From: Bacilli bacterium
GTDB lineage: Bacteria; Bacillota_I; Bacilli_A; ML615J-28; CAG-698
Length of the DNA stretch: 64,000 nt
NCBI GenBank assembly: GCA_918272565.1
Contig: CAKJYW010000002.1
Span: 44,266-108,265 of the forward strand
Direction of reading: 5' to 3'
Position numbers and translations under genes: made by a program
The notes under the pieces: generated by a model
Told to the model about the DNA's origin: nothing
Databases searched by the model: none
The model's input: the letters and a program-made list of their open reading frames with translations, nothing else
Part shown: one piece after another, positions 4,620 to 30,685 of the stretch
Layout of the letters: every line of letters begins with the position of its first letter
How positions within the stretch are numbered: position 1 is the stretch's first letter

Positions 4620-4724
4620 TTTTTCATAGAATTCTATGTTTTTTTCGATTATAGTTTAACATTTTTAATATATATTGTCAATTTTTGTAATGCTTTTTTT
4701 CATAGAATTCTATGTTTTTTTCGG
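4620..4724. promoter_or_regulatory. Duplicated 28-nt element containing the perfect 14-bp palindrome CATAGAATTCTATG (putative operator)
   Basis: TTTTTCATAGAATTCTATGTTTTTTTCG occurs at ~4620-4647 and ~4696-4724, immediately upstream of the ATPase gene that starts at 4608 on the minus strand. Confidence 0.4.
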
Positions 4725-6486: not shown

Positions 6487-6541
6487 AAATAATTCCTTCC
6501 AGCAATTATAATATCAAATAATGTGTAATTAGTAAATATAT

Positions 6542-6595
6542 TTGCACCAATTTCATAGCGACTTTTTCCCTATTTTGCACCAATTTCATAGTGAG
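6542..6595. promoter_or_regulatory. Direct repeat TTGCACCAATTTCATAG(C/T)GA, two copies, upstream of the second ATPase gene
   Basis: Copies at ~6542-6562 and ~6575-6595, 33 bp apart, lying 60-110 bp upstream of the start at 6486 (minus strand). Confidence 0.3.
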
Positions 6596-6711
6596 TTTTT
6601 ATAATAATCACACCAAATAATTATTAATAAAAAAAGTTGAACAATTGATATGATATCTTCAAAGTAGACAGTTTCCACTTTTTATCATTATTAAAATACG
6701 TAATAGATAGC

Positions 6712-6770
6712 AATAAAAAAAGGTGAACACCCTGGGTTCGTTAAACGAACACAGCTAATGCTCACCTATA
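6712..6770 (-). terminator. Rho-independent terminator of the LRR lipoprotein gene
   Basis: On the minus strand, immediately 3' of the stop: imperfect hairpin GGTGAGCA..GTTCGTTTAACGAAC..GTTCACC followed by an 8-T run. Confidence 0.5.
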
Positions 6771-6773
6771 TCT

Positions 6774-8138
6774 TTATTCATCCATTTCAACAATGTTATC
6801 AGCGTATGCACTCCATGTTTGGTTAGCAATGTACATTTCTTTACTTCCTTTTGGAACATAGATTGTTACATTACTAGGTAGACGGAATGATGTACCCGCA
6901 ATTGAGAATGAGTTAGGGTTCTTAGCATAGATATACATCTCTGTAAGTTTAGGGCATCTTTCGAATGCTGATGCTTGAACCTTAATCTTTTCTGGAGTAG
7001 GGCTAACAGTAATTTGTACTGTTGCTTTGATTGTTGGATCACTCTTTAGAGCACAAGTGATAGTTAAGTTACCAGCCGCAACACCTCTGATTGTACCTTT
7101 ATCAGCATCTACTGCAGCTACATTACTACTATTAACACTCCAAGTAACAAGTTTACCACTTGCTTCTGTTAATTTAATGATATCACCGATGTGAATGTTT
7201 CTAGCTCCTTTAATAACAAGTCCAGATGCTGATTCAGAAGCAACTTCTGTCATGAATTCTTCAGAATATAAATCATCATCGTTAACCATGAACTTAACAG
7301 TCTTTAGACGTTTGCTACTACTGAATGCAAATTCACCAATACCAGTAACGCTTGCAGGAATGACAACTTCTCTTAATCTCTTGCTTTGGAAGAAAGCATA
7401 TTCTTCGATTGTAGTGACATTATTACCAATTGTAAGTTCTCTAATAGTACTTGCAGGATATGTGATTTGGAAAATCTTTCCAAATCTAGCAAATGCAAAT
7501 TTCTTAATTATTGTTACAGGAAGACCATCAATTTCATCAGGGATTGTAACTGTTCTCTCTCTACCTGCATAATTAACTATCGCAATATTAGAATAAGTAA
7601 CTTTATCAGTTTCAAGTTTATATGAAGGACGATATTCAAAATCTTCATATACATGTAAAGCAGTCTTTAACCACAAATCATCAGGAAGATTTCCTAATCT
7701 CTCATAATCAGGGTTAATATAAACAGTTGATGTGAAAACCCAAGGATTTTCATTTGTTTGGCTCATGTAAATATCGAATTCGATATCTTGAGCTGATCCA
7801 CTTTGAGTTACAGTAGCAGTAACGTGAGCACTATAATATAGTTGCTTTACAGCTGAAGATGAAAGGTCAGCTTCAGTTGTGAATTCAAATGTCTTTGTAG
7901 CTATCTTATCAATATCACTGAATTGATCAAAGTTTTCTTCTTTTTCTAAGTATGCTTTGTAAGTAGAAGCTCCTTCAGGGTAGTAGCAAGCAGTAATCTT
8001 TTCTCTATTTTTAGCATTTACTGCGCTAACATAATTTTCCCAAAGTTGCTTTGCACCTTCGTTTTTGTTACCACACCCACTGATTAGAGCAAGGCAAATT
8101 ATAGTCATAACTACAATAATAGTTTTTCTGAATTTCAT
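6774..8138 (-). CDS. Surface lipoprotein with BspA-type leucine-rich repeats and a Big_2 Ig-like domain
   Basis: Lipobox LALISGCGNK. LRR_5-like repeats IPDEIDGLPVTIIKKFAF...IPASVTGIGEFAF. C-terminal Big_2 segment ...TIRGVAAGNLTITCALKSDPTIKATVQITV. Confidence 0.6.
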   Translation of the reverse strand: MKFRKTIIVVMTIICLALISGCGNKNEGAKQLWENYVSAVNAKNREKITACYYPEGASTYKAYLEKEENFDQFSDIDKIATKTFEFTTEADLSSSAVKQLYYSAHVTATVTQSGSAQDIEFDIYMSQTNENPWVFTSTVYINPDYERLGNLPDDLWLKTALHVYEDFEYRPSYKLETDKVTYSNIAIVNYAGRERTVTIPDEIDGLPVTIIKKFAFARFGKIFQITYPASTIRELTIGNNVTTIEEYAFFQSKRLREVVIPASVTGIGEFAFSSSKRLKTVKFMVNDDDLYSEEFMTEVASESASGLVIKGARNIHIGDIIKLTEASGKLVTWSVNSSNVAAVDADKGTIRGVAAGNLTITCALKSDPTIKATVQITVSPTPEKIKVQASAFERCPKLTEMYIYAKNPNSFSIAGTSFRLPSNVTIYVPKGSKEMYIANQTWSAYADNIVEMDE

Positions 8139-8221
8139 ATGTCCTCCAAAACGTGTGTTTAATAAAGATATTACAACTTATTATATATCTTTTTATAACC
8201 TTTTGCAAACCTTTTCTATTA

Positions 8222-9190
8222 TCAATTATTCTTTTTATCAATTAAATATTTAAAATAACCAGCAACCGCAATCATTGCGGCATTGTCTGTACAATATTTC
8301 ATTGAAGGGAAACTTAATTCTACGTTAGGTAGCTCAGCTTCTACTGCACTAGCTAATGCTAAGCGAAGACCTTTGTTTGCTGCAACCCCTCCAGCCACAA
8401 CAACTTGTCTTACTCCATATTCTTTAGCAGCTTTAATAGTTTTACTAACTAAAACTTTAATTACGCTGGTTTGGAATGAACAAGCTAGGTCAGCTTTATT
8501 AATTTCTTCACCTTTCATATTGCATTTATTAACAGTATTAATAACTGCACTCTTTAAACCTGATAAACTGAAATTATAGCTATCTTTATCAAGGAGTACT
8601 ACAGGAAGTTTATAGCTAGGACTACCTTCAAAGCTTAATTTATCAACCTTAGCTCCAGCAGGGTATGTTAATTCTAGGACTCTACCTACTTTATCGTAAG
8701 CTTCTCCAACCGCATCGTCCAGTGTTTCACCTAAAAGAGTAAAATCATAATGGTCTTTCATTAACCTTAGCTCAGTATGACCACCACTAACAACTAAGGC
8801 AATCATTGGGAAATTAAAATCATGCTCGATAAAGTTTGCATAAATGTGCCCAACAATATGATCAACCTCAATTAGTGGCACATGGTAAGTTAAAGCAAAA
8901 GCCTTAGCCGCATTAATTCCAACTAAAAGAGAGCCTATTAATCCGGGATGAGTAGTAACACATACTAAATCGATGTCTTCTTTTTTTACATTAGCTATTC
9001 TAAAAGCTTCTTCAAATACATATGTTATTTTTTTAACGTGGTGACGACTAGCAACTTCAGGTATTACCCCACCATAAACTTCATGGAAAGGTATTTGAGT
9101 ATAAACAGCATTTGCTAAAACCTCTTTACCATCTTTTAATATTGCTACACTAGTTTCATCACAACTACTTTCAATACCTAATACTAACAT
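8222..9190 (-). CDS. tsaD: tRNA N6-adenosine threonylcarbamoyltransferase TsaD
   Basis: MLVLGIESSCDETSVAIL N-terminus plus the HH..GH metal-binding motifs of the Kae1/TsaD family. Confidence 0.9.
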   Translation of the reverse strand: MLVLGIESSCDETSVAILKDGKEVLANAVYTQIPFHEVYGGVIPEVASRHHVKKITYVFEEAFRIANVKKEDIDLVCVTTHPGLIGSLLVGINAAKAFALTYHVPLIEVDHIVGHIYANFIEHDFNFPMIALVVSGGHTELRLMKDHYDFTLLGETLDDAVGEAYDKVGRVLELTYPAGAKVDKLSFEGSPSYKLPVVLLDKDSYNFSLSGLKSAVINTVNKCNMKGEEINKADLACSFQTSVIKVLVSKTIKAAKEYGVRQVVVAGGVAANKGLRLALASAVEAELPNVELSFPSMKYCTDNAAMIAVAGYFKYLIDKKNN

Positions 9191-9636
9191 TATTCTTCCA
9201 CCTTTTTAATTAGAACTAAAGCATCTTCACCATCTTTGTAATATCTTTCTCTTTTGTGAGAGAAAGTAAAGCCATATTCTTCATATAGTGAAATAGCTAC
9301 CTCATTAGACTCTCTAACTTCTAAGCTAATAGATTTAACACCACTCATCTTACAAAGCTCTAAATAAAACTCTAACATCATTCTACCAAAGCCTTGATGT
9401 TGGTATTTCTTACTAACATAGAAATTAACAATCTCTCCTCTTTCTCCTTCAATCCAAGTGCTAATATAACCACTTACCTTTTTATCGATATCAAGAACAA
9501 AATAATAAGCATAAGGATTAAGTTTAAGCTCGCTATAAAGCATATCGTAGCCTAAAGACTCTCCGAAGACTTCTTCTTCACCCTTAACAACTTCTTCGAT
9601 ATCATCAATGGTCATTTCTCTAATTTCGTACCTCAT
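9190..9636 (-). CDS. rimI: Ribosomal-protein-alanine N-acetyltransferase RimI (GNAT)
   Basis: GNAT motifs (QHQGFGRMML); sits in the conserved position between tsaB and tsaD. Confidence 0.75.
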   Translation of the reverse strand: MRYEIREMTIDDIEEVVKGEEEVFGESLGYDMLYSELKLNPYAYYFVLDIDKKVSGYISTWIEGERGEIVNFYVSKKYQHQGFGRMMLEFYLELCKMSGVKSISLEVRESNEVAISLYEEYGFTFSHKRERYYKDGEDALVLIKKVEE

Positions 9637-10214
9637 GATAAGGCCTCACGTAAATAATTAGGCTCTACTTCGTGAATATTATCTACCTTATTTTTAGCTA
9701 TTTCTAATATCACTTTAGCATCATATTTATAATTATCTTCTGTTATTAGCGTAATACCTTTATCTAAGTTATCGATAAATTCTTCTTTTAGAATAAATTT
9801 ATCGTCTTGTAGAGTTTCTAACTTTCCACCATTAACTTTAATAATCTTAGAATAGATATAATCACGTTTAGCAGTATTAGTAATAGCATAGGTGCCATCA
9901 TTATTAAAATAGCCACTACCTAAAATATCAAGGCTACTAATAGTGTACAAAGGAATATCTTTAGCCCAACTAAACATCTTACAAATAGTTAAAGCAACTC
10001 TTAAGCCAGTGTATGACCCTGGTCCAATACCACAGATAATTCTTTCTAGGCTACCTACTTCCATATTAAGTTTATTTAGCCCATCACTAATTAGATCCAT
10101 GATTTTTTCTGAATGGTTGTTTCTTCCTTCTAGAACTACACTATAGTCTTTTTCCCCATTAGTTAAAAACAAATATAAATAATTACTTGATGTATCTAAT
10201 ATTAAATATTTCAT
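9633..10214 (-). CDS. tsaB: tRNA threonylcarbamoyladenosine biosynthesis protein TsaB (YeaZ)
   Basis: MKYLILDTSS...GIGPGSYTGLRVAL; inactive Kae1 paralog in the tsaE-tsaB-rimI-tsaD cluster. Confidence 0.8.
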   Translation of the reverse strand: MKYLILDTSSNYLYLFLTNGEKDYSVVLEGRNNHSEKIMDLISDGLNKLNMEVGSLERIICGIGPGSYTGLRVALTICKMFSWAKDIPLYTISSLDILGSGYFNNDGTYAITNTAKRDYIYSKIIKVNGGKLETLQDDKFILKEEFIDNLDKGITLITEDNYKYDAKVILEIAKNKVDNIHEVEPNYLREALS

Positions 10215-10681
10215 TATTTAGCTACCTCACTTAATAATTCTAAATATTCACTATTACCTTTTATACTTTCATCAACTTCTAAAGTAATCTTTCTAGTTGA
10301 TGAATCGATATATGATATTGTGATTAAGATAAAGTTCTTAGGAAGTATCGCACTTACCTGATGTGCCCACTCGATAACAGTTACGCCACCTGCTTCAAAA
10401 TATTCTTCTAGGTATTCGTCTCCGCTATCGTTATTAAGGCGATATACATCCATATGATATAAAGTGAGATTTCCTTCATAGATCTTAAGAATCGTAAATG
10501 TTGGGCTATTAACGACTCTATTTACACCTAGTGCCTTAGCAATCCCCTTAGTTAAAGTAGTCTTACCAGCACCTAAGTCGCCTTCCATTAATATAACCAT
10601 GTTCTCTTTTAAGTAGCGACCGATAGACTCACCAAATAAAACCATTTCGTCACTACTATTTATAATCCTAACTAATTCCAT
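10214..10681 (-). CDS. tsaE: tRNA threonylcarbamoyladenosine biosynthesis ATPase TsaE (YjeE)
   Basis: Walker A GDLGAGKTTLTKGIAKALGV; 155 aa. Confidence 0.8.
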   Translation of the reverse strand: MELVRIINSSDEMVLFGESIGRYLKENMVILMEGDLGAGKTTLTKGIAKALGVNRVVNSPTFTILKIYEGNLTLYHMDVYRLNNDSGDEYLEEYFEAGGVTVIEWAHQVSAILPKNFILITISYIDSSTRKITLEVDESIKGNSEYLELLSEVAK

Positions 10682-10718
10682 AATTTCACCACTTGAAAAA
10701 TAAGACTTATAAAAAGTC

Positions 10719-11174
10719 TTATTTTAATTCAATATAACTTTCTAACCAAGCCTTAAAAGCCTCTAAGTTTCTAAAGCATTCAGTATCATCATCGCTTGAA
10801 GTATCTAAGAAATCAACGATTTTTCCATTTTTAAAAATCACAACAGATGGAGAATATTTGACAGTTTTCTTTAAAGTTGATCCTTTTTCCATACTATCAT
10901 ATGGTAGTGACAAAATCTCTAGATTAGTGTCTTCTAGATAGTCATCTAATATTTTTCTTAGTTCGTCACAAGTTGTGCATCCGTCTAAGAAAATATAAAG
11001 CAAGAAATTATCTTTATTATTAATCCTACTGTTAACTTCTTCGATATCTACTTCTGTGATTCCCTTGTTTTCTAGCTCATAGAACTCATCATTTAAATAG
11101 AATTTCTCTTGTTCCCCACATCCAACAAGTAAACATCCAATAACCAAAAGAGCAAACACTAATACTCTTTTCAT
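10719..11174 (-). CDS. Thioredoxin-fold lipoprotein (CxxC = CTTC)
   Basis: Lipobox LLVGCGEQ. Thioredoxin-like pattern FLLYIFLDGCTTCDEL...SPSVVIFKNGK. Confidence 0.45.
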   Translation of the reverse strand: MKRVLVFALLVIGCLLVGCGEQEKFYLNDEFYELENKGITEVDIEEVNSRINNKDNFLLYIFLDGCTTCDELRKILDDYLEDTNLEILSLPYDSMEKGSTLKKTVKYSPSVVIFKNGKIVDFLDTSSDDDTECFRNLEAFKAWLESYIELK

Positions 11175-11184
11175 AAATTACTCC

Positions 11185-11847
11185 TTATTTTTTAGTTAAT
11201 TTATCGAATTCGATTTCGTGATAAGCAACTTTATAGAAGTCGTAAACTACTTCGCCACTTGCTAGTGTACGTTTAGTAATTACGTTATTATTTCCTTCGT
11301 AATAAGAATAACCACCAATGTTATAAAGCTTATTTGCATCCCATCCTAAAGCAACTAGCATTGCTTTTGTCATTCCAGCATATCCACCAGCACCGCACAT
11401 GATAAAGATAACTTTATCTTTAGGGAACAAGTATTCTAAGATTTCCATTGATTCAACGTAATTTGCTACATAGTTACCATTACCGTCTTGAGTAAATAGG
11501 GTAGGTCCAGTGTATGATTCACCGATTTCAGCAGGTAAGCCCATTACATTAACTAGAAGTGGATAAGGTACGACTTCAAATCCTTTAACAAATCCATTTA
11601 AGTGACTATCAAGACCAATTGCTTCATAGTTTGCAGGATCTTTTAACATTCTAACATCACGGTAAACAGCATCGCTTCTACCTAAATACTCATCAATTGT
11701 TGCTTCATTGATATTCTTATCAATTCCAAATTGTTCGCCTCTTATACCACTATCAAGTTCAGGTGCTGGTAACTTCTTTAATCCACTACCACATCCAACT
11801 AATGCTAGTGATAAAACCATTATTAAAACTAAAACTATTTTTTTCAT
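11185..11847 (-). CDS. Lipoprotein with a C-terminal rhodanese-like domain
   Basis: Probable true start is the internal Met (MKKIVLVLIMVLSLALVGCGSG lipobox); the 30-codon N-terminal extension in the ORF track overlaps the pgi 3' end. C-terminal VIFIMCGAGGYAGMTKAMLVALGWDANKLYNIGGYSYY fits the rhodanese active-site loop and GG..W pattern. Confidence 0.4.
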   Translation of the reverse strand: MKKIVLVLIMVLSLALVGCGSGLKKLPAPELDSGIRGEQFGIDKNINEATIDEYLGRSDAVYRDVRMLKDPANYEAIGLDSHLNGFVKGFEVVPYPLLVNVMGLPAEIGESYTGPTLFTQDGNGNYVANYVESMEILEYLFPKDKVIFIMCGAGGYAGMTKAMLVALGWDANKLYNIGGYSYYEGNNNVITKRTLASGEVVYDFYKVAYHEIEFDKLTKK

Positions 11848-11857
11848 ATTAATCCTC

Positions 11858-13147
11858 TTATTTCTTAGGTTTACCAAGTAAACTAAACATTTCTTTCTTG
11901 TAGGCTTCAACACCTTCTTGGTTAAATGGATTGACATCTAAGATGTATCCACTTACACCACAGCTAGCCATAAAGAAATATACTAGGTAACCAAAATTAT
12001 ATTCATTTAATTCGTCTATGTTAATAATAGCATTAGGAACCCCACCCTCTACATGAGCGATAGCTGTTGCAAGGAGCGCTTGTTTATTAACATAATCTAG
12101 TTTTTTACCAAACAAGTAATTAAGATTATCTCTATTTTCTTCATCGAAAGAATTTACGATATCAAATTTAGGTTTATTTATATTAATTACTGTTTCGAAT
12201 AATATTCTTTTTCCATCTTGAACATATTGACCCATTGAATGAAGGTCAGTTGAATATATTACACTTGCAGGGAAAAGACCTTTTCCTTCTTTTCCTTCGC
12301 TTTCACCAAACAGTTGCTTCCACCACTCTTCTAAATAGCGAAGCTTTTCTTCATAAGAAACTAAGATTTCAATTTCTTTCCCTTTGTTTAATAGAGCATT
12401 ACGAACTGATGCATATTTCATAGGTCCATTTTGTTCAAATTCATCATCTTTAAAATCATTGTATGAATCTAGCGCACCTTTAAGAATTTCTTTAACATCA
12501 TAACCCTTAAACGCTAGAGGTAGGACCCCAACAGCAGTTAGTACTGAGTAACGTCCGCCGATGTCTGCTGGGATGAAGTATTCTTCGAAACCTTCAACTT
12601 GAGCCATCTCATGTAGTGAGCTACCTACGTTACTAGTGACTGCGATAATCCTCCTATTATAATCTTTACCATATTTTTTCTTTAAGAGGTTCTTTAAGAA
12701 TCTAAAACTGATTGCAGTTTCAGTTGTAGAACCTGATTTAGAAATACAAACAACACTGAAATCTTTATCTTTTAAATAATCCAAAGTTTCACTCATCTCA
12801 GTTGAAGAGAAACTTTTACCAACATATATTATTTTATATTCGTTTGCGTCATAATAATCACTTAAGAAAGCATCACAGGCCTTAGTTCCTAAATAACTAC
12901 CACCGATACCTGCTACAACCAAAATCTTTGATAGACTTCTCAAGCGATTAGCACTATCAATAATAGCGTTAACTTCATCTTCTTTAATTAAACTAGGCCA
13001 CTTAACCCAACCAACAAAGTCATTCCCTTTACCAGTTTTGTTAAGTAATTTAGTTCTTGCATCATTTGCTTTTTCTTTAAATGAATTAATTTCATCTTCA
13101 GATACGAACTTTAAAACATTTGAGTAATAATAATTAACGCACTTCAT
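11858..13147 (-). CDS. pgi: Glucose-6-phosphate isomerase
   Basis: Gram-positive-type PGI, 429 aa; contains LFGESEGKEGKGLFPASVIYSTDLHSMGQYVQDGKR. Confidence 0.9.
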   Translation of the reverse strand: MKCVNYYYSNVLKFVSEDEINSFKEKANDARTKLLNKTGKGNDFVGWVKWPSLIKEDEVNAIIDSANRLRSLSKILVVAGIGGSYLGTKACDAFLSDYYDANEYKIIYVGKSFSSTEMSETLDYLKDKDFSVVCISKSGSTTETAISFRFLKNLLKKKYGKDYNRRIIAVTSNVGSSLHEMAQVEGFEEYFIPADIGGRYSVLTAVGVLPLAFKGYDVKEILKGALDSYNDFKDDEFEQNGPMKYASVRNALLNKGKEIEILVSYEEKLRYLEEWWKQLFGESEGKEGKGLFPASVIYSTDLHSMGQYVQDGKRILFETVININKPKFDIVNSFDEENRDNLNYLFGKKLDYVNKQALLATAIAHVEGGVPNAIINIDELNEYNFGYLVYFFMASCGVSGYILDVNPFNQEGVEAYKKEMFSLLGKPKK

Positions 13148-15081: not shown

Positions 15082-16110
15082 TTACAATTGCTTTTTCACA
15101 AATTCAACAAATCTTGGAAGAATTATTCGACATTTCCCGTATTCAGTGCCTTCAATAATTCCTCTTTTAATTAATCTATCTCTATAAACAGAATATTCTT
15201 TAATTGTTAGATTAGTATTTGTCATAATGGTACTAGCATCTAACAGATCATCATTAAAGACTTTCAAAAACATCTTTTCTTTTTCAGGTAAACCACTCCA
15301 AATTTTAGCGTAAACATAGATAGACATATATTTATCAAATTCATCAATTAGATCTTCTATTTTTCCATATTTACTAAACAAGAAACCAGCAACCTGGTAA
15401 GCAAAAGCATAACCTTTAGTTAAGTTTGCTAGTGAAAATAGTTCTTCTTTTGAAGCATCACTAAAAATCTTTTGATATTCTATTTCAATTAAATTCAAAT
15501 CAAGGGGAACAAGTTCAATTTTAGGAGCACGATAAAGGAAAGTAAGATTTTTGTTATTTTGCAAAGAATTTACGTTTTCATATAATCCAGTCATTAGAGT
15601 AAAAACTGGATAATCATTCCTTAAAAACCCTTGAAAATCATGAGCGAAAGCTCTCATATATGAATTATTTGATGCTTCATCAATAGTAAACAAAACTCTT
15701 TTATCATTCTTCTTAACAACATCAAGCATTTTTTCAATAATTGTTTTTACATTAGATACAGGCTCTTTACCCTCAATTGAGATACCTAATCCATGAAAAG
15801 AAAACGAAAATGTCTTAGATAAAAATAGATACTTAGAATTTCTATTTTCATATAAGCCTGATGCTATTTGTTCTAATATATCCCTATCAGGATTAATGTC
15901 AATCAGTATCCACTTTTTATCTTTCTTAATATCGTTTGATATATCATTAAGCAAAACAGTTTTTCCAGATCCTCTTACTCCACATATAATGTATATATGT
16001 GATAAAGGATAATCTAATGTAAAATCATCGTACACTTGCTTTTTTAAAAAATCTCTATTGATATAACTTGTTGGGGAAAGACCAAAAGTAACTGAGAAAT
16101 TATTGTTCAT
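15082..16110 (-). CDS. AAA+ ATPase, archaeal-ATPase-like (Arch_ATPase/AAA_16-type) with probable C-terminal winged helix
   Basis: Walker A ICGVRGSGKTVLLND; Walker B-like VLFTIDEAS; 342 aa. Confidence 0.45.
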   Translation of the reverse strand: MNNNFSVTFGLSPTSYINRDFLKKQVYDDFTLDYPLSHIYIICGVRGSGKTVLLNDISNDIKKDKKWILIDINPDRDILEQIASGLYENRNSKYLFLSKTFSFSFHGLGISIEGKEPVSNVKTIIEKMLDVVKKNDKRVLFTIDEASNNSYMRAFAHDFQGFLRNDYPVFTLMTGLYENVNSLQNNKNLTFLYRAPKIELVPLDLNLIEIEYQKIFSDASKEELFSLANLTKGYAFAYQVAGFLFSKYGKIEDLIDEFDKYMSIYVYAKIWSGLPEKEKMFLKVFNDDLLDASTIMTNTNLTIKEYSVYRDRLIKRGIIEGTEYGKCRIILPRFVEFVKKQL

Positions 16111-16257: not shown

Positions 16258-17412
16258 TTATGACTTTCTTAGTAGAACTATAGCTTCAGCCACAACCGCC
16301 TTGCTTTCCCCAACATCTCCTACTTTTTCTCCTCTAGTTGCTTTAACATTAATTTTGTAACTAGGAACTTCAAGTAATTTAGAAATGTTATCTACCATAT
16401 CATGAATATAGGGACGCATCATTGGTCTTTCTATATATATAGTAGAATCTAGGTTAACAATGGTGTAGCCTGCTTTATCTAACATCTTTTTAGCATTTTT
16501 TAGAAAAATGCTAGATGAGGCATCTTTATATTTATCATCATTATCAGGAAAATGGGTTCCAATATCTCCCTTAGCTAGCGCTCCAATTATTGCTTCAGTT
16601 ATTGCATGAAGAAGTGCATCACCATCAGAGTGCGCAACAATCCTATATTCACAAGGAATCTTAACTCCACCTAAAGTTATTGCATCTCCACAATCTAAGC
16701 GATGTGTATCTTTTGATTGACCAACTAAATAGTCATTATTAAATCCAATCAAAGCATTAACTAATTCAAAATCATTCTCAGTTGTCACTTTAATGTTATT
16801 AGTCTCTGTTTGAATTAGTAAAGGATTGATATTGAAATAGAATTCTACAGCACTAACATCATCAGTAAATTCGATGTTTTCTTTTCTTGATCTAATTAAT
16901 GCTTTTAAAAGTAAATCAGTTTTTGATCCTTGAGGTGTCTTCATCGCCATTAAGTTGTGTCTTTCAACAACCCTATTTCTTGTTCCTGTTACTCTTCTAA
17001 CACTATCGTTTACTTTAGAAACTAAAGAAACTAAAGGATAATCCTTTAATCCATCTAAGACATTAGTGATGTCTTTTACAGATATTATAGGACGAGCACC
17101 ATCATGAACTAAAACATATTCACTAACCGCATTAACAAGACCATTATAGACGCTTTCGCTTCTAGCATTTCCCCCTTCAACAAACTCTATTCTTTTATCA
17201 CTAACTAAAGAATTAATGGTTTCAACCATTTTTTCTTTTTCTTCTTTTCTAACTACAACAATCAATTTTTGTAAATTATCAAAAGATAAGAACTTAACTA
17301 GTGAATAATAGAGCAGAGGTTTACCATTAACTTCGTATAAGACCTTATTATAGCCTAAACCGGCTCTAGTTGAAGAGCCGGCAGCAAGTACTATTGCATC
17401 AAATTCAATCAT
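16258..17412 (-). CDS. ispDF: Bifunctional 2-C-methyl-D-erythritol 4-phosphate cytidylyltransferase / 2-C-methyl-D-erythritol 2,4-cyclodiphosphate synthase (IspDF)
   Basis: N-terminal IspD motif AIVLAAGSSTRAG. C-terminal IspF segment HSDGDALLHAITEAIIGALAKGDIGTHFPDND. 384 aa, equal to the sum of both enzymes. Confidence 0.85.
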   Translation of the reverse strand: MIEFDAIVLAAGSSTRAGLGYNKVLYEVNGKPLLYYSLVKFLSFDNLQKLIVVVRKEEKEKMVETINSLVSDKRIEFVEGGNARSESVYNGLVNAVSEYVLVHDGARPIISVKDITNVLDGLKDYPLVSLVSKVNDSVRRVTGTRNRVVERHNLMAMKTPQGSKTDLLLKALIRSRKENIEFTDDVSAVEFYFNINPLLIQTETNNIKVTTENDFELVNALIGFNNDYLVGQSKDTHRLDCGDAITLGGVKIPCEYRIVAHSDGDALLHAITEAIIGALAKGDIGTHFPDNDDKYKDASSSIFLKNAKKMLDKAGYTIVNLDSTIYIERPMMRPYIHDMVDNISKLLEVPSYKINVKATRGEKVGDVGESKAVVAEAIVLLRKS

Positions 17413-17426: not shown

Positions 17427-18698
17427 TTATAGATTCTCTAAGAACTTATTACTTAAGTCAACTTTGCACTTTTCGAATTCAAGGTCGTTATTCTTTAGAG
17501 CATTTAAGTCATACTCAAAGTATCTACATTCTTTGTTTGTAGCGATGTATAAAGCTAAGCGACCAGCTTCAACATATTCTAATGAATTCTTTTCGCTAAC
17601 ACTTTCAGAATGAACAAATCCTAATACGTTAGTAACAAAGTACTTCTTTCCTTCGTAATCTGTTTCAAGTTCTAATAATTCAGAGTTCTTGCTCTTAACC
17701 ATGTGGATGTTATCACGATAAACATCAACATCAGTTGTTAAGATACAATATTCTCTACTACTAATCTTATAGATTGAATCGTTTTGTTTGAATAAATCTT
17801 TTTGAACACTTCTTAAGTAGTTTTCGATAACTGCATTTGCAGCTTCTTTACCTAAGTGTTTGATCAAGTTTTGGTTGTTAGTTACAAGAATTAAAGTCAT
17901 ACCAAATTCTTCACCAACAGAGATTAATCTTGATAATTCAAGTTCTAAGTCGTTACGATCGAAGATAGCTTCTGGATTAATTTGTTCTTTATGGAATGTA
18001 GCGATAACATCATCTTTTTCAAGATGTTTAACTTCTTCAAACCATATAATTCCGCTATTAGTTCTTAAACGATAACGATATTTAGCTTTAGCGCTTTTTT
18101 GTTTTAATAAGCCTTCATAAACATTGCTATCATCTTCAACAATAAAGTTCTTATATTCATCAACTGAAAGAGTTCTTGATTTAATATCGATTAACTCTCT
18201 CATTCCTTTTGTTAAGTGATATCCATTGATTCTTGCATCATAGAATCCTAGAGGTTCATCGATTGTATCTAAGTACTTATCAAATGCAAAAGTGAATTCA
18301 ACTTTTGGCGCAACTTCTGGAACTACTTCTTCCTCTGGTTGTTCTTCTTCACCTTCTGCTTCTTCTTTCTTAGATAGTCTTACAGCAAGAATAATCCAAT
18401 CAGCCACAAGCACTAAGAAATATAGGATTGTGGCAAAAAGAATCCAAGTTAAGTCTTGACGGCCTTCCCAATAGATAACATATCCTAGTAAACCTGCAAT
18501 AAAGTGAATTAATATCGCAAGTAGGGCTGATGCAAACATGAAGAATTCAAGGAAGAATATCTTCTTTTTCTTAGCAATCATCAAAACAAATAATAAAACG
18601 AACAAAACAGAAATTCCAATAACTAATAACAAATAGTTTTTGTTAATAAAGCTAATTATTGGGTTCAAAATGCTATTAATGTCAAAACTCAAAATCAT
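17427..18698 (-). CDS. Membrane protein (about 4 N-terminal TM helices, acidic linker) with a C-terminal degenerate GGDEF-like / nucleotide-cyclase-fold domain; sits in the CdaR position after cdaA
   Basis: The C-terminal segment TLILVTNNQNLIKHLGKEAANAVIENYLRSVQKDLFKQNDSIYKISSREYCILT aligns with the GGDEF pattern L.D.D.FK.IND..GH..GD..L...A..L......D...R.GGDEF..LL, but the GGDEF signature is replaced by SSREY. Confidence 0.3.
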   Translation of the reverse strand: MILSFDINSILNPIISFINKNYLLLVIGISVLFVLLFVLMIAKKKKIFFLEFFMFASALLAILIHFIAGLLGYVIYWEGRQDLTWILFATILYFLVLVADWIILAVRLSKKEEAEGEEEQPEEEVVPEVAPKVEFTFAFDKYLDTIDEPLGFYDARINGYHLTKGMRELIDIKSRTLSVDEYKNFIVEDDSNVYEGLLKQKSAKAKYRYRLRTNSGIIWFEEVKHLEKDDVIATFHKEQINPEAIFDRNDLELELSRLISVGEEFGMTLILVTNNQNLIKHLGKEAANAVIENYLRSVQKDLFKQNDSIYKISSREYCILTTDVDVYRDNIHMVKSKNSELLELETDYEGKKYFVTNVLGFVHSESVSEKNSLEYVEAGRLALYIATNKECRYFEYDLNALKNNDLEFEKCKVDLSNKFLENL

Positions 18699-18707: not shown

Positions 18708-19508
18708 CTATTTAACATCTAAGAATCCATCTAACATTTCTTTTAATCGGTCAATTCTAAGTCCTAAACTTATTGTTCCACTAGATGCAACAGATATATT
18801 ACCTGTTTCCTCACTAACAACAATTGTTAAAGCATCGTATCTTTCACTTAAACCTATCGCTGCTCTATGACGTGTACCTAAGTTCTTAGGGATATCATAT
18901 TTATCAGTTGATGGTAAGTAAGCACCTGCGCACATGATCTTGTTCTTTCTAATGATAACTGCACCATCATGACAAGCAGTACCAGGATAGAAGATTGTTG
19001 TGAGGATTTCTTGGTTAATTGAAGAGTTGATAGGAATTGCTTTTTCAATGAAAGAATTCAAACTATCATTTCTTTCTATACTTATTAAAGCACCAATTTT
19101 CCTTTTTGACAAGTATTCTGCTGTATTACATAGTGTATCAATGATTTCTTGCTTTTCTAAAACGCTACTAAAGGCATTGTTTGTCTTGTTTGTTGTGAAA
19201 CGAATTTCAAAGTCATGCTTGATTTCTTGTGAATACACAACAATCAAACATACACCAAGTAACAAGGCACAGAACTTAAGTAGTACGTTAAATAACTCTA
19301 AAGAGAATACTAAAGACACAATATAAAGTATTATTCCAATCCCTAGTAAAATATAAAAGACAGGCTTTTTAATCTTCTTTAGAATGAAAGAAATCAGTAT
19401 CGAAATAACCACTATTGCTAGTATTACATCAATAACTAACTTTATTATACCACCAATTGAGTATCCATTGGTATATTCATTTAATAATTTTGTAAAAGTT
19501 TCAATCAT
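18708..19508 (-). CDS. cdaA: Diadenylate cyclase CdaA (DisA_N domain, membrane anchored)
   Basis: Three N-terminal TM helices, then DisA_N motifs ...TACHDGAVIIRKNKIMCAGAYLP...TRHRAAIGLSERYDALTIVVSEETGNISVA. Confidence 0.85.
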   Translation of the reverse strand: MIETFTKLLNEYTNGYSIGGIIKLVIDVILAIVVISILISFILKKIKKPVFYILLGIGIILYIVSLVFSLELFNVLLKFCALLLGVCLIVVYSQEIKHDFEIRFTTNKTNNAFSSVLEKQEIIDTLCNTAEYLSKRKIGALISIERNDSLNSFIEKAIPINSSINQEILTTIFYPGTACHDGAVIIRKNKIMCAGAYLPSTDKYDIPKNLGTRHRAAIGLSERYDALTIVVSEETGNISVASSGTISLGLRIDRLKEMLDGFLDVK

Positions 19509-19514: not shown

Positions 19515-20078
19515 CTACTCCTCTTTTAAAATCATATCTACTTTCATCTTTCTAGCTTCATCTAATGACTGACGAGGCAAAAAATATCTAATAATTTTCT
19601 CGTCTTTCTCATCAATGGCATAATCAATTGGTAGATTGTTTATTTCATCTAATAACAAAATATCAGCACCATTATCTACTAACAACTTAACCATATCTAA
19701 GTTACCTTTAGTAACGGCTAGATGCAAAGGTGTCTGTTCTAATTCCGTTCCAATATTTACATCGCACCCATAATCAATCAAGCATTTAACGAATTTAAGT
19801 TTATCTTCCATAACCGCTTTATGAATAGGCGCATCTCCGCTTTCATTTGCTAAATTAACATTAACACCACTTTCTAAGAAAATCTTAAAAAGTCTTAAGT
19901 CGTTCATCTTAATAGCAAGATGCAGTAAAGTGTTACCACTAGAGTTTTGAGTGTTAATATCAATATCTTCTTCTTTTAATCTATTTAGTGTATTTTTGAT
20001 ATATAGATAACGATGGGGATCACATTTAATAGAATATACAAAGTCACTAAATTTCTTCTTATTTCCTCTTTTGTACAT
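19515..20078 (-). CDS. Ankyrin-repeat protein (3-4 ANK repeats)
   Basis: GNTLLHLAIKMNDLRLFKIFLESGVNVNLANESGDAPIHKAV...TPLHLAVTKGNLDMVKLLVDNGADI. Its start overlaps the 3' end of the upstream helicase-like gene by 20 nt. Confidence 0.75.
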   Translation of the reverse strand: MYKRGNKKKFSDFVYSIKCDPHRYLYIKNTLNRLKEEDIDINTQNSSGNTLLHLAIKMNDLRLFKIFLESGVNVNLANESGDAPIHKAVMEDKLKFVKCLIDYGCDVNIGTELEQTPLHLAVTKGNLDMVKLLVDNGADILLLDEINNLPIDYAIDEKDEKIIRYFLPRQSLDEARKMKVDMILKEE

Positions 20079-23000
20079 TCTTTCCTCGCTTCATCTCTTC
20101 TAGCATCTTTTCATAATCTTTCGCAATACCAATCTTTGATATTAGTTTTGTATCAAAACCACTATTTAAATGGTTTTCATAAACATCACGATAAGTATTC
20201 ATTGATTCATCAGGAGTAGCATTTCCCCATAAGATTATATCAGCTTGAATGTTTTCTTGATTATATCTATATATTACTCCATTAGATGAGCAACTTGCTT
20301 TATATCCATCAGTCTCTAGATGCTTCTTGATATGTTCCATAACAGGTGTAGCACTAACCTCAGGTAGAGCATTCTCACAAACAAGTAGCTTCTTAATTCC
20401 TAAATAGAAACGATAAGCAAATTCACCATCAAGTAACTTATTATCATCATAGATAACCACTTTGTTTTTAGTGATTAAAAGTGAATCAATCAAGTTATCA
20501 CTAATATAGTCGACATCGATTGTATAATAATCTTCTAAGAATAAGATATTATAATCGCTATCATAATAATAACCACTAGATAAATCACATACATTAACTT
20601 GAGATAGAAGCAATGATAAAATCACATCTTCATTAATTCCCTTAGATAAGAAATAACCAGCAAATGCTTCGATAAACTCACTTTGTTTACCGATTTGTTT
20701 GATAAAGACATTTACTTTGATATTACAATTACGTTTGTAATTATCGTAAATGTATTTACAAACATTACCAGTTAAAACTTCAATTCCACAGTTATCGTTA
20801 TAATTTCTAGCGATTAACCCACTTATGCCACTAACTTTACATTGTAAGTTCTTAGGCATTGGTGTGTAGCGGTAATCGAAAGTGATTGTAGCGACTTGTC
20901 TTGTTCTACTGATTAGGTTATTAATAACTGATGTGTGGGTAGGTTTTTCACCACTTATAATAACTTGTTTAGCTAAGATGAAATCACCATAAGCGCTAGA
21001 TGAAAGCAAATGAGCATCATCAATAATAACCAAATCAAAATAGTTCTTATCTAAATACAAATTACAAATATCACTACTAGCAAGTATTACTTGCTTACTA
21101 TTACGACGAACATAATCAGCGTAATCCATAAACTTCTTGTTAATGTTACCATTACGAGAAGGTTCTCTCTTAATTCTTGATAATAACTTTTCTTCGTTAT
21201 TAACTACAACTTTCTTTTCTAGTTTGTATATTTCTTCTAACTTATTAATAAATTCTAAACTATTTTCTAGTTCAGGATATTTCTTGAAATAGATATTTAT
21301 GATATTAGTGAAATAAGTGTACTTAAAGTCATCAACTAACCCTTCACCATACTTACATTTAGAAGCGTAATTAATTAAACCATCTAAATGATATTCAGTT
21401 AATGCACTTAATCCCTCATTAGCATTTAGATATAATTCTAATTCGCTAGTAGAATTAAGTAAAGTCTCTAAATAATTAACAGTTTCATCTAAATCACTAT
21501 AATAATATCTAGAAACACCATCAACAAACATATGAGAATATGCTTTAAAGATATCGTTGATTTCATCACCTGTCTTCTTACATTTATCTAGGTGAACACT
21601 AATCTTTTCATATGTTTCATTCTTAAGGGCATCTAAGAAGCCACGAGCAGAGCTAAATGATTCCACAAAATCATTGTATGCATCAATTAAATCTGATAAA
21701 GCATTAATATCAGTTGCTTCTCCTTTGTAAGCTTCACCGAATAGTCTTTCATATTCGTAGTTGATATCAAAGTGCTTCTTTAAGTTCTCTCTCTTCGATA
21801 AACTTTCCTTTAAGAAATAATATGTCTTACTAGAAACAAAGTTTCCTTCTTTCTTCTTTAAGATCTTCTTTAGTCTATCGTTAGATGCATAGATATTACG
21901 CAAATAATCTAACACTTCAGTGATTTCTTCAATCTTCTTATTGAAATCTTTACTTAAAGTGATTCTATAACTTCCAATTAATAAAGCTAAATCCTCTAAG
22001 CCATAATAAGTTCTACGGAAGTTATTCAAAGATTTATTGATAGAAACATTATCTTTCTTGCATACTTCAATCAAAATCTTAATGATGCTCTTCTTATAAG
22101 TTTTTGTTGAAATGCTATCGTAGTATTCTTTAAAGTCACTAATCTTTTCTAAAACATCGTTATTAGGACGATATTTCTCAAGTGTTAGTTCGCTATATTC
22201 CTCTTTCTTTATTCTTAGTCTTTGAATATCAGAGAAATATCTTCTAACATGAGAGATTTGCTCTTCTAGATTACCACGTCCAAAGTACTTCTTTAATACA
22301 GAAGCCAAAGCCTTCTTAACTTTCTTTTCGTTACTTTGAAGATATTCTTCAATCAAACTCAAGATATCTTTAGCTTTCATCATTGCAACTTTAGGATAAT
22401 CAGTTGTGAAGTCTTTGATGTAATGAGTAGCATCATTGATTTCTTCTAAAACACTAGATACTTTTTTATAATATCCATCATATTCATCATTATTAATAGC
22501 ATTAATAACATTGCTATTAATCTCATGACTATCCAAAAATGTCATTAACTTTAATAGTTCACCAATCGAATCGTTGTTCTTACCAAAGTTGTATCCACTA
22601 ATCTTTTCGAATGTGGCGATACTCTTTCTGTAGTTGGCTATTTGTTCATTACCATCTAGAACTCTAACCATAATATCATTACGATTAGCAAATAGTTCAT
22701 CAATCAAATCTAGGTCATTTCTTGTATAGTATTTACCCATTATTTCATTGATTTCATCGTTGATATTAATCAAATCATAATTGTTAAATACTTGACCCAA
22801 ATTGAAATTGATCTCTTGGTAACTAGCTACATTATTCTTTAAACGTCTAAATTCATTTTGAGCTTTTCTAAAGCTTGATAAGTCACTGGTTTTCCAGCTT
22901 GAAGGAACACTGCGAATATCAAGTGCCTCAATCTTAGAAACGATCTTACGTAAAGATGCATAGTCGTTAATCTTAACTATAGAAAACTTTTCTTCTAGTG

Positions 23001-24324
23001 CCTTCTTCTCTTTTTTAAAGATAGAGAAGCATTCATAAATTCTCTTAATTAGCGTCATTATGACTTTAGCATCGCTTGCTTTGTTAGTTCTAGCAAGTGA
23101 CTTCCAATTAGAGTCGTTAAATACACCCATAGATTTAAGCGCTTCTTGGATTTTCTCTAATGCCTTAACGACTTCTAGATATTCATTTTTATATATATTA
23201 GAAAGGTCATCAATATCAATGATATTAGGTTTCTTATCAATCAAATTGATGATTTCATCTATTACTTCAATAAAACGATGGTCTAAGATTCTACTTCCAA
23301 TCTTTTCTTCAATCGAATTAATATATTGATAATCATCTTCTAATAAAGAATAATCAATATCGATGTGTTTAGCTGTCCAATCTTTTAACACTTCGCTATA
23401 AATCTTTTGATATGAATTAGTTAGATTAGATACATTATTACCTAGTCCATAATTATCAAGGTAATCTTCTACACTATCTAAAGTCTCTTTCATATTAGAG
23501 ATAAATAGAGTCTTTTTATTATCATACATTGCATTAAGCAAAATGTTCTTTAGAGCTAAAGTCTTACCAGTTCCATTTCCCCCAACAATCGTAAAGCTCT
23601 TTCCTAGTTTACTAACATAAACAGCTTTTCGTTGTTTCTTGTTTAACATGTCCGCAAAATAAACATCGCTTCCACGTAAATACATCTTATCATAGAAGAT
23701 ATCATCTTCAATATTTAATTCAAACTGGTTAGAATCAATCATGAACTCACGATTAGCAACTTCACCAAATGTTAAATAGTTTTCGATTTCTAGTCCTAGT
23801 CCATCAATCTTAACGATTTGAATACAGAAATGGTCGATACCATAAATTGTATCTTCTTCTAATGAAAGGCCTTCGATACCTCTACTTGATAATACCTTAA
23901 GTAAATAAGGATTAACAAATGATGTGGCTATCTTTTGAATTAAGATATCGTTTTGTTCATAATAAAGTTTAACAGGTATTAAAACAGCAGGAACAAACAC
24001 TTCTTTTTTGTCCTTGATATATTTAACAATGCCATATGTGATAAATAGTTGTCTATTTATGTTTTTCTTATTGATATTAAGAAAATAAATATATGGCATG
24101 ATGTTACGCATCTTGCTATTATTTAAGTTACTATGTCCAATGCCGGTATTTTGAATAGGCAAGTAAGCAACATCACTTAAAGAAACTAGTTCTTTTTTGA
24201 TTATTCTTTCAAATACAGTGACGTCAATGTTTCCTAGTTCAACATAACAATTGTCATTGAATATATTATTAAGATGTTGATTGTTATTACTAAGTTTTAA
24301 TAGTAATTCTTTTGCCATAATCAA
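20059..24324 (-). CDS. Large SF1 (Upf1-like, AAA_11/AAA_12-type) helicase-like ATPase with DUF4011-like N-terminus, ~840-aa helical insertion and a possible Vsr/DUF559-like C-terminal tail
   Basis: N-terminal LFITYGIVKY...VFVPAVLIPVKL resembles the DUF4011 core. Walker A TIVGGNGTGKTLALKN at ~aa 245. Motif II-like LVIIDDAHLL at ~aa 1090. Lys/Glu-rich low-complexity region in between. C-terminal HLETDGYKAS...DIILWGN resembles the E.DG..H endonuclease-fold tail common on such helicases. 1421 aa. Confidence 0.5.
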   Translation of the reverse strand: MIMAKELLLKLSNNNQHLNNIFNDNCYVELGNIDVTVFERIIKKELVSLSDVAYLPIQNTGIGHSNLNNSKMRNIMPYIYFLNINKKNINRQLFITYGIVKYIKDKKEVFVPAVLIPVKLYYEQNDILIQKIATSFVNPYLLKVLSSRGIEGLSLEEDTIYGIDHFCIQIVKIDGLGLEIENYLTFGEVANREFMIDSNQFELNIEDDIFYDKMYLRGSDVYFADMLNKKQRKAVYVSKLGKSFTIVGGNGTGKTLALKNILLNAMYDNKKTLFISNMKETLDSVEDYLDNYGLGNNVSNLTNSYQKIYSEVLKDWTAKHIDIDYSLLEDDYQYINSIEEKIGSRILDHRFIEVIDEIINLIDKKPNIIDIDDLSNIYKNEYLEVVKALEKIQEALKSMGVFNDSNWKSLARTNKASDAKVIMTLIKRIYECFSIFKKEKKALEEKFSIVKINDYASLRKIVSKIEALDIRSVPSSWKTSDLSSFRKAQNEFRRLKNNVASYQEINFNLGQVFNNYDLININDEINEIMGKYYTRNDLDLIDELFANRNDIMVRVLDGNEQIANYRKSIATFEKISGYNFGKNNDSIGELLKLMTFLDSHEINSNVINAINNDEYDGYYKKVSSVLEEINDATHYIKDFTTDYPKVAMMKAKDILSLIEEYLQSNEKKVKKALASVLKKYFGRGNLEEQISHVRRYFSDIQRLRIKKEEYSELTLEKYRPNNDVLEKISDFKEYYDSISTKTYKKSIIKILIEVCKKDNVSINKSLNNFRRTYYGLEDLALLIGSYRITLSKDFNKKIEEITEVLDYLRNIYASNDRLKKILKKKEGNFVSSKTYYFLKESLSKRENLKKHFDINYEYERLFGEAYKGEATDINALSDLIDAYNDFVESFSSARGFLDALKNETYEKISVHLDKCKKTGDEINDIFKAYSHMFVDGVSRYYYSDLDETVNYLETLLNSTSELELYLNANEGLSALTEYHLDGLINYASKCKYGEGLVDDFKYTYFTNIINIYFKKYPELENSLEFINKLEEIYKLEKKVVVNNEEKLLSRIKREPSRNGNINKKFMDYADYVRRNSKQVILASSDICNLYLDKNYFDLVIIDDAHLLSSSAYGDFILAKQVIISGEKPTHTSVINNLISRTRQVATITFDYRYTPMPKNLQCKVSGISGLIARNYNDNCGIEVLTGNVCKYIYDNYKRNCNIKVNVFIKQIGKQSEFIEAFAGYFLSKGINEDVILSLLLSQVNVCDLSSGYYYDSDYNILFLEDYYTIDVDYISDNLIDSLLITKNKVVIYDDNKLLDGEFAYRFYLGIKKLLVCENALPEVSATPVMEHIKKHLETDGYKASCSSNGVIYRYNQENIQADIILWGNATPDESMNTYRDVYENHLNSGFDTKLISKIGIAKDYEKMLEEMKRGKNVQKRK

Positions 24325-28882: not shown

Positions 28883-30685
28883 CTATTCAATTATTTCAAA
28901 TATTTCTACTAAATTCATCACTTTAATATTAGGATAAGAAGTAGGTTCACTTTTAGCACTTTTTTCAAAATCGCTCTTGCTTCCACAGTACTCATTTCCT
29001 GCACTCTCATTACCAAATCTCTTACCGAATCCATTATTATAATTGAGGTATTCTTCAAAATCATTGTAATGATTATATGTATAGAATACTTTTCTTTGAT
29101 TAATCGATTTAATGCTTTTATCACTAATAAAGCAGAACCTTGCGGCACCACGATTGATTGTTGTGCCCGTGTTATACACTTTTTGTGTATATTTAGTTCC
29201 AGTAACCTTGTTTTCGTTTGTGTAACCACCTAATGTTCCAAAGTCAGTTTCAGTGTATTCATAGATACTAATCCCTGGCATCTCTGGTTCATATGGCCAT
29301 TTTGAGCTATCATACATCATAATATCTTGATTAACCCTACCATAAATACCAAAGTCAGCGATACAATCACTCTTGCCTTTTGATTTATCGTATTTGTTAT
29401 TAACTGGAGTCTCTCCAAATGCTAGGATGTATGCAGCAACTTCATTTAAAGAAGCATATGCTCCACCATACCAAATCATTTGGAAATTGCCTTCTAAATC
29501 ATTAGGTAAATATCCTAAATAGCCTCCATTATAATCAAGCACATAAAAGGCATGAGTTAAATAAATATATGTATCTTCATAAGTTACATCATATTTATTA
29601 GGGATGTGTCCTTGAGGAGTGATATCACCACTCATAAGACCATGAAGTGATCTAAAATAAGAGTCTATATAACTATCTGCTTCACTATAATTATTATAGA
29701 ATTCTTCTTTATCGATACCAGCATAAGGGTCTGTAGCACTACTAATATCATATGAAGTAAAGACACAATAAACATCATCACCATAGATATCTAAATCAAT
29801 TCCATAAGGATTATCAACATCATTAGAATAAATTATAATATCATTGCCTAATACTGAATATAAATATTCTTTATATGATAATTCATATTCATCATAACTA
29901 ATGAAATTATTAACTTTAGCTAATTCTATTTCATTATAGATGATAGAAACATATTTATTACTACTAACGCTAGTAATAAAACCAGTTATTTTTACTTCTT
30001 TATCTAAATAATTGTTTAATGATGATGCATCAATTGGATAAGCAACGCTTATTACGGCTTTAGCTCCATCAATTATCAAATTATAATATGAACCACTTTT
30101 AATTAATGTACCAGCTACACTTACATATTCAGCTTTGATTTCATCGACACTTAAATAATTATCTAAAGCAGCTTTATCAACTTCTTTTGGTTTACTAAAG
30201 TGGATGTCCCATGTTCCTTCTTTAGTATAGGTTGATGATTTATCAAATTGAATTGATTTACCATAACTTACAACATTACCAACAACACTTACTGTATCAC
30301 CAATAGCTAGATCAGTAGTCCAAGTGTTTCCTAAATAAACCAAAATGTTACCAGTTCCATCGCTAAGCAAGAAGCTTTCCTTATTCACCGCTAAAACAAC
30401 ACCTATAGTTTTAGCTTCACCTAACTTTAATTCACTTATCTTTGAATAGTCATCTTGAGGTTGCTCATCTTCCTTAGGGTCTTCTTCGCCTGGTTCTTCC
30501 TCTTGAGGCACTTGTTCCTCTTCAGGCACTTGTTCCTCTTGAGGTTCTTCCTCTATAGGATCATCTATTATTGGATCTTCTTCTTTAGGGGGATTTTGTT
30601 CGGTTTCTAAAAAGGAACAAGCACCTAATATCAAGCTAAAGAATAAAAGTAAAACCAATAATATCTTTTTATAATTAATCTTCAT
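28883..30685 (-). CDS. Surface lipoprotein with acidic EEQVPEEE repeat and an OB-fold-like module, function unknown
   Basis: Lipobox SLILGACSFLE. Low-complexity EEEPQEEQVPEEEQVPQEEEPGEEDPKEDEQ. LKLGEAKTIGVVLAVNKESFLLSDGTGNILVYL resembles tRNA_anti/YhcR-type OB folds. 600 aa. Confidence 0.45.
   Translation of the reverse strand: MKINYKKILLVLLLFFSLILGACSFLETEQNPPKEEDPIIDDPIEEEPQEEQVPEEEQVPQEEEPGEEDPKEDEQPQDDYSKISELKLGEAKTIGVVLAVNKESFLLSDGTGNILVYLGNTWTTDLAIGDTVSVVGNVVSYGKSIQFDKSSTYTKEGTWDIHFSKPKEVDKAALDNYLSVDEIKAEYVSVAGTLIKSGSYYNLIIDGAKAVISVAYPIDASSLNNYLDKEVKITGFITSVSSNKYVSIIYNEIELAKVNNFISYDEYELSYKEYLYSVLGNDIIIYSNDVDNPYGIDLDIYGDDVYCVFTSYDISSATDPYAGIDKEEFYNNYSEADSYIDSYFRSLHGLMSGDITPQGHIPNKYDVTYEDTYIYLTHAFYVLDYNGGYLGYLPNDLEGNFQMIWYGGAYASLNEVAAYILAFGETPVNNKYDKSKGKSDCIADFGIYGRVNQDIMMYDSSKWPYEPEMPGISIYEYTETDFGTLGGYTNENKVTGTKYTQKVYNTGTTINRGAARFCFISDKSIKSINQRKVFYTYNHYNDFEEYLNYNNGFGKRFGNESAGNEYCGSKSDFEKSAKSEPTSYPNIKVMNLVEIFEIIE

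Follow-up and report, generated by a model that had tools for sequence, protein, structure and literature searches.

The gene that directly follows the diadenylate cyclase gene cdaA encodes a membrane protein that carries a PAS domain and a degenerate GGDEF domain, and it belongs to a family that retains neither the active site nor the inhibitory site (I-site) of the diguanylate cyclases. We refer to the protein as X, and by the window we mean the whole stretch of DNA analyzed (64,000 nucleotides, GC ~31%). Given the genes with which X is associated, we consider it plausible, at a probability of roughly 40%, that X is a regulator of CdaA akin to the sensory half of GdpP, and we treat it as a candidate.

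Results

Gene structure and domain architecture

The reading frame of X opens with an ATG, encodes 423 aa, and begins 9 nt past cdaA (TIGR00159, 198.3 bits against a cut-off of 188.8), which agrees with the initial annotation of the window, where X had been placed immediately after this gene. Its GGAGG ribosome-binding site lies over the cdaA stop codon, an instance of operonic packing. Coordinates of X, its parts, and its neighbors are given in Table 1. An AlphaFold2 model built on a 100-sequence family alignment had a mean pLDDT of 90.6. The initial annotation had also described about four transmembrane (TM) helices and an acidic linker. X is indeed a membrane protein, but only three clear TM helices were found, together with an N-terminal amphipathic helix; the linker stood as described, with 11 Glu within the 27 residues 109–135 and low model confidence. 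The amphipathic helix is missing from ~65% of the family, judged by the gap fraction in the family alignment. Lys-rich loops follow TM1 (KKKK) and TM3 (RLSKK), and because of them the soluble domains (PAS-GGDEF) are predicted by the positive-inside rule to be cytoplasmic.

Two features of X had been absent from the initial annotation, namely the PAS domain (residues 137–237) and a conserved C-terminal tail (residues 403–423). The protein ends 23 residues past the GGDEF domain. The tail has the sequence EFEKCKVDLSNKFLENL and corresponds to a family motif of the form [YF]xFExxK[IV]DL[SD][ND]xFL. Since it is conserved and yet modeled with low confidence, the tail may be a short docking peptide.

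Table 1. Positions of X, its parts, and the neighboring genes in the window
Feature	Positions	Strand	Evidence or description
X, membrane protein of 423 aa with 3 TM helices, acidic linker, PAS domain, degenerate GGDEF domain, and C-terminal tail	17427..18698	(-)	ORF
GGAGG ribosome-binding site of X, lying over the stop codon of cdaA	18704..18708	(-)	upstream ...GTTAAATAGGAGGCAAAT-ATG
N-terminal amphipathic helix of X, residues 7-20	18639..18680	(-)	DSSP of model
Three TM helices of X, residues ~22-44, 49-70, 85-109	18372..18635	(-)	hydropathy; model pLDDT ~95
Acidic disordered linker of X, KKEEAEGEEEQPEEEVVPEVAPK, residues 110-132	18303..18371	(-)	pLDDT <50
PAS domain of X, residues 137-237	17988..18290	(-)	
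Degenerate GGDEF (diguanylate-cyclase fold) domain of X, residues 245-400	17499..17966	(-)	
SSREY replacing GG[DE]EF, residues 313-317, beta2-beta3 hairpin	17748..17762	(-)	translation and alignments
Conserved C-terminal tail of X, NNDLEFEKCKVDLSNKFLENL, residues 403-423	17430..17492	(-)	pLDDT ~63
cdaA, membrane diadenylate cyclase, 3 TM and DAC domain	18708..19508	(-)	TIGR00159 198.3 bits (cut-off 188.8); PF02457 DAC 1e-40
Ankyrin-repeat protein, 187 aa	19515..20078	(-)	Pfam Ank families
ispDF fusion, 14 nt downstream of X	16258..17412	(-)	
SF1-helicase-like protein, 1421 aa, first gene of the conserved string	20059..24324	(-)	

A PAS-GGDEF protein without catalytic or I-site residues

As a single sequence, X had no significant match in Pfam, NCBIfam, or the PDB (phmmer), and its homology became visible with the family profile only. 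Compared with nine canonical GGDEF proteins, the family gave a profile-profile probability of 99.2% (E 1.8e-19) over 160 columns, and the family profile matched solved GGDEF domains at E 1e-10. Individual members matched PF00990 on their own in 62 of 100 cases and PAS_3 in 28 of 100. Foldseek searches with the X model placed the PAS-GGDEF-EAL proteins PA0861 and DosP at the top (E ~1e-10), while isolated GGDEF domains were matched with target-normalized TM-scores of 0.7–0.78. The C-terminal domain is thus a member of the GGDEF superfamily (PF00990 fold) by both fold and profile homology, as the initial annotation had proposed from residue spacing. Residues 137–237 form a PAS domain, identified by the PAS fold and a PAS_3-type signature.

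The initial annotation had weighed GGDEF homology against homology to the YbbR domains of CdaR, the protein normally expected in this position. While GGDEF was found, there was no YbbR signal by sequence or fold. The location of X directly after cdaA would suit a CdaR, whether canonical or divergent, but a protein with a cytoplasmic PAS-GGDEF arrangement in place of extracytoplasmic YbbR repeats is extremely improbable as a CdaR, and we rejected this assignment.

In both the profile-profile and the profile-PDB alignments, S313-S314-R315-E316-Y317 of X fell column for column on G-G-D/E-E-F, the replacement that had been noticed in the initial annotation. The GG[DE]EF motif was present in 0 of 101 aligned family members. 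In PleD numbering, metal-binding D327 corresponds to L271 of X, the guanine contacts N335 and D344 to I279 and N288, and phosphate-binding K442 to T387. The metal-binding Asp was kept in only 6 of 101 members. At the I-site position X has KQND; RxxD was seen in 0 of 101 members and [RK]xxD in 7 of 101.

With the GGDEF motif, metal-binding Asp, guanine contacts, and phosphate-binding Lys all lost, X is, as judged from its sequence, unable to make c-di-GMP, and the description of a catalytically dead cyclase fold holds at that level. The GGDEF fold would be compatible with an active diguanylate cyclase that uses an unorthodox motif, but the SSREY sequence, the loss of the metal-binding Asp and of both residues that bind guanine, and the absence of GG[DE]EF from all 101 members make this very improbable, and it was rejected at the sequence level. 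Binding of c-di-GMP in the manner of known degenerate GGDEF receptors also appears unlikely, because RxxD is absent and the guanine contacts are lost. The counts for GG[DE]EF (0/101), the metal-binding Asp (6/101), and RxxD (0/101) point to a pseudo-enzyme that is old and kept by selection, and not to a cyclase that decayed recently.

Some features of the domain are retained across the family. The second Glu of GGEEF, E316, persists in 69 of 101 members, the residue at 317 is aromatic in 101 of 101, Asn occupies the PleD N335 position in 39 of 101, and Asp or Asn occupies the D344 position in 61 of 101. These residues would fit a degenerate domain that still binds or hydrolyzes nucleotide, either as a GdpP/YybT-like ATPase or as a sensor of ATP, GTP, or c-di-AMP, and that couples it to CdaA or another target. 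The degenerate GGDEF domain of GdpP does have weak ATPase activity (PMC10243994). We nevertheless judge this improbable for X, where the equivalents of the metal-binding Asp, N335, D344, and K442 are all replaced; the metal-binding Asp survives in just the six members noted above, and the GdpP-type GGDEF model PF24898 was not among the 25 most-matched of the 99 families that the 100 scanned members hit.

Size and variation of the family

The X profile was searched against 1.84 billion cluster representatives with a cut-off of E<=0.001, which yielded 141 proteins. About 100 of them, as cluster representatives at 50% identity, are X family members, all membrane proteins of 370–545 aa, while the weak end of the match list consists of textbook PAS-GGDEF(-EAL) proteins. 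The recovery of ~100 members by profile shows that selection maintains X, which is no chance ORF. A word-indexed search with X returned 7 close homologues only, and the same kind of search with the family profile returned mostly canonical PAS-GGDEF-EAL proteins. The members come from metagenome-assembled genomes (MAGs) labeled Acholeplasmatales or 'Mollicutes' (two MAG titles) and from digester, bioreactor, and gut metagenomes. No name for them was found in the sources searched.

The PAS domain is the best conserved part of the family, with D190 present in 99 of 101 members and R210 in 89 of 101; W219 and E222 are conserved as well. Around the PAS domain the architecture varies. Approximately two-thirds of the family are at least 460 aa long; in place of the acidic linker of X they have an additional, probably PAS-like domain of ~100 aa. 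The number of TM helices ranges from 1 to 3. The C-terminal tail is kept in about two-thirds of members and is missing from a distant tail-less subgroup. A strict tie between the tail and the ankyrin gene was considered and rejected, as two loci (L022 and L009) have the ankyrin gene and no tail.

Gene neighborhood in the window

Five genes lie on the same strand in tight packing, in the order helicase-like, ankyrin, cdaA, X, ispDF, and no terminator-like site was found between them. The helicase-like gene runs with its 3' end into the start of the ankyrin gene, which in turn ends 6 nt before cdaA; in relatives, the ankyrin and cdaA genes overlap by 8 nt. Across relatives, the ankyrin protein (84/68/64/50/38/31% identity) is as conserved as CdaA (83/64/54/55/43/37%), and the ankyrin protein could itself be a CdaA regulator. 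The helicase-like protein has a P-loop at about residue 240 and always heads the conserved string. Among window ORFs of at least 120 aa, there were no YbbR, DHH, EAL, PilZ, or intact GGDEF proteins. No Rfam RNA families were found in the window, and hence no c-di-AMP riboswitch.

The helicase-like protein shows a partial, sub-threshold likeness to ProA/Hhe and to PADLOC PDC-S37, and defense systems based on DAC domains exist; those of the Panoptoo/Panoptes type combine a minimal soluble DAC or mCpol with an S2TM-beta effector and have a patchy distribution (PMC13640738). We therefore considered whether helicase, ankyrin, DAC, and X might form an anti-phage system of this type, with a nucleotide synthase and a membrane effector. 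The cyclase, however, is an equivalog-level CdaA with 3 TM helices and not a minimal DAC, neither X nor CdaA had a PADLOC match, no S2TM-beta effector is present, and the cluster is syntenic with housekeeping genes throughout the clade instead of forming a patchy island. A defense role is thus highly improbable, and we rejected it on the PADLOC results, the housekeeping context, and the type of CdaA.

Several other genes of the window were recorded. Genes for ATPases of the AAA/ATPase_2 and AAA_14-DUF4143 types, at 15082-16110, 3301-4608, and 5134-6486 (minus strand), break into the conserved string and may be mobile or defense-related insertions. The one at 15082-16110 sits between ispDF and a NifU-like gene and is missing from this place in L001. 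An unusual 750-aa fusion of Amidase_2 (N-acetylmuramoyl-L-alanine amidase), aldo/keto reductase, and 4Fe-4S dicluster domains is encoded at 30685-32937 (minus strand). Four paralogues of ~750 aa, each with three Big_2 Ig-like domains, lie at 47571-49847, 50007-52289, 52432-54690, and 58206-60458 (minus strand). They are probably surface or lipoprotein paralogues, and one also has a solute-binding-protein-like region. An MscS-type channel gene (54768-55703) lies amid them.

Linkage of X to cdaA across lineages

Linkage was evaluated in two sets of loci. The X-seeded set consisted of contigs of 11 divergent family members and two MAG loci, and gave 12 informative lineages (the window, L001, L004, L007, L008, L009, L010, L012, L013, L017, L071, and L072). 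The ankyrin-seeded set came from a metagenome scan with a 5-sequence alignment, which gave 52 loci that were then examined with local HMM searches.

All 12 informative lineages of the X-seeded set had cdaA upstream of X and on the same strand. The two genes directly adjoin in the window, L001, L007, L008, L012, L013, and L071. A single mgsA separates them in L004 (5637-5990) and L010 (4635-4988), and a micro-ORF of 56–57 aa with a single TM helix does so in L009 and L072. L017 has four genes spanning 5.9 kb between them, namely glmM, glmS, a gene for a 770-aa protein, and mgsA (9628-9999). In this locus (3288-11635) glmM comes right after cdaA and the pair occurs without cdaR; this gene order suggests that cell-wall precursor genes were lost from the string in the lineage of the window. 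The linkage also outlasts changes in the flanking genes, since L071 has a different upstream context and in L072 the genes for the helicase, the ankyrin protein, and ispDF are missing, yet both keep cdaA with X. Across these loci, identity falls to ~19% for X and to ~37% for CdaA. The rate of evolution of X is much higher than that of CdaA or the ankyrin protein, a point against coupling.

The micro-ORF was observed in distant lineages (L009 4609-4779, L016 59-232, and L072 2233-2406). Its sequence shows the pattern MK..LK.....I.P..F, after which comes a single TM helix at the C-terminus. Its product may be a third small membrane component. We rejected the possibility that the N-terminal helix and TM1 of X represent a fused micro-ORF, as X already has 3 TM helices in the lineages with the micro-ORF.

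The ankyrin-cdaA pairing was kept in the 52 metagenome loci, where the order is helicase-like, ankyrin, cdaA, (mgsA), X, (MTHFS), ispD/F. For 40 of these loci there was enough downstream sequence to look for X, and it was located downstream of cdaA in 37, with mgsA separating the two in 23 of the 37. This mgsA, which is not present in the string of the window lineage, is a true methylglyoxal synthase gene encoding 117–123 aa (TIGR00160, 181–185 bits against a cut-off of 146.9). In two of the three exceptions, L021 and L024, X was not found within 9 kb, and the string is broken by a UPF0236 transposase-like gene directly after cdaA (9292-10707 and 11602-13041, respectively). No CdaR was found at X-seeded or ankyrin-seeded loci, and the gaps in related loci, at 560 nt or less, are too short for a CdaR gene.

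The string also includes unrelated housekeeping genes, and because it is shared throughout the clade, the adjacency of X to cdaA could be inherited gene order. X would then act on a target unrelated to c-di-AMP, for example isoprenoid or membrane-lipid metabolism together with ispD/ispF, or on an unlinked partner. MTHFS and/or ispD/ispF follow X in essentially all informative loci, often with stop/start overlap, which makes X at least as faithful to MTHFS and ispD/F as to cdaA, and mgsA, NifU, S1, PGI, and TsaBDE are equally syntenic. X can be separated from cdaA by mgsA or by the glmM-glmS-770aa-mgsA block, and it is parted from cdaA where the IS-like gene follows. Against this, cdaA and X stay together in L072 without ispDF and in L071 with other upstream genes, the linkage persists while CdaA diverges to ~37% identity, and no other CdaA-linked membrane regulator was found in the clade. 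We regard shared gene order without a functional link to CdaA as only slightly less probable than a role of X as a CdaA regulator.

Discussion

Coupling between X and CdaA is argued for by the persistence of cdaA-X over deep divergence and changes in flanking genes, as well as by the operonic packing, the lack of CdaR, and the precedents of CdaR and GlmM. CdaR binds CdaA through TM domains, while GlmM binds the DAC domain; GlmM is the sole CdaA regulator whose mechanism is understood, and the function of CdaR is obscure (PMC10243994). If X regulates CdaA, it would act as a cytoplasmic sensor whose PAS domain perceives an intracellular cue and which signals onward by protein-protein contact, without catalysis. 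The likeliest target would be the neighboring membrane cyclase CdaA, and X would take the regulatory role held by CdaR and GlmM in other Firmicutes. The interaction surface could be the dead GGDEF domain and/or the C-terminal tail, together with the TM helices; a conserved TM-TM interface is disfavored by the variable TM content of the family (1 to 3 helices).

Among the proteins of c-di-AMP biology, GdpP comes closest to X in architecture through its N-terminal half. GdpP carries a TM-PAS-degenerate GGDEF arrangement ahead of its catalytic domain, so both proteins combine a membrane anchor, a cytoplasmic PAS domain, and a degenerate GGDEF domain within the c-di-AMP system of Firmicutes (PMC10243994). 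The two differ in several respects. X has 3 TM helices where GdpP has 2, and it has no DHH/DHHA1 domain (no DHH match was found). PF24898 did not match X and was not among the best 25 of 99 families, whereas PF00990 was matched by 62 of 100 members, so that X appears nearer by sequence to canonical GGDEF domains than to the GdpP-type PF24898. Finally, X is encoded beside the cyclase, whereas the module in GdpP is part of the phosphodiesterase.

The best structural and profile matches of X were PAS-GGDEF cyclases and PAS-GGDEF-EAL proteins (PA0861/RbdA, DosP, and the PleD GGDEF domain), which have the same folds in the same order; unlike them, X and its family have no catalytic signatures and no I-site. 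Proteins of the FimX, LapD, and PopA/PelD type take part in c-di-GMP signaling by way of an EAL domain or an RxxD I-site, and X has neither. CdaR, like X, is a membrane protein encoded right after cdaA, and the two possibly occupy the same regulatory niche. It differs in having three to four YbbR domains, a single TM helix, and an extracytoplasmic soluble part, while X has no YbbR domain, 3 TM helices, a predicted cytoplasmic soluble part, and unrelated folds.

A broader proposal is that the cytoplasmic ankyrin protein is translationally coupled to cdaA and, together with X, forms a module that controls CdaA in CdaR-less, low-GC, Mollicutes-like Bacilli, with X gating c-di-AMP synthesis through PAS sensing and protein contacts. 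We rate this as rather unlikely. Our literature search, which had incomplete coverage, returned no report of a GGDEF-fold or ankyrin partner of CdaA, nor any publication that connects ankyrin repeats with a diadenylate cyclase. Degenerate PAS-GGDEF proteins are a well-known kind. What is new is a whole family without an active site or I-site that is fixed near the c-di-AMP synthase in a CdaR-less lineage.

Should X and cdaA be linked by gene order alone, what remains is an ordinary result, a divergent degenerate PAS-GGDEF protein that had no annotation. If the ankyrin protein and X do form a module, X would mirror the sensory half of GdpP on the cyclase side, and it would be the first instance in which a dead c-di-GMP cyclase domain has been co-opted to control c-di-AMP synthesis. 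For the tuning of CdaA, X and the ankyrin protein are two new candidate regulators. The CdaR-less lineage offers a natural experiment on the role of the PAS and degenerate GGDEF pair that it shares with GdpP, and the X family documents the survival of the GGDEF fold as a pseudo-enzyme with neither active site nor I-site.
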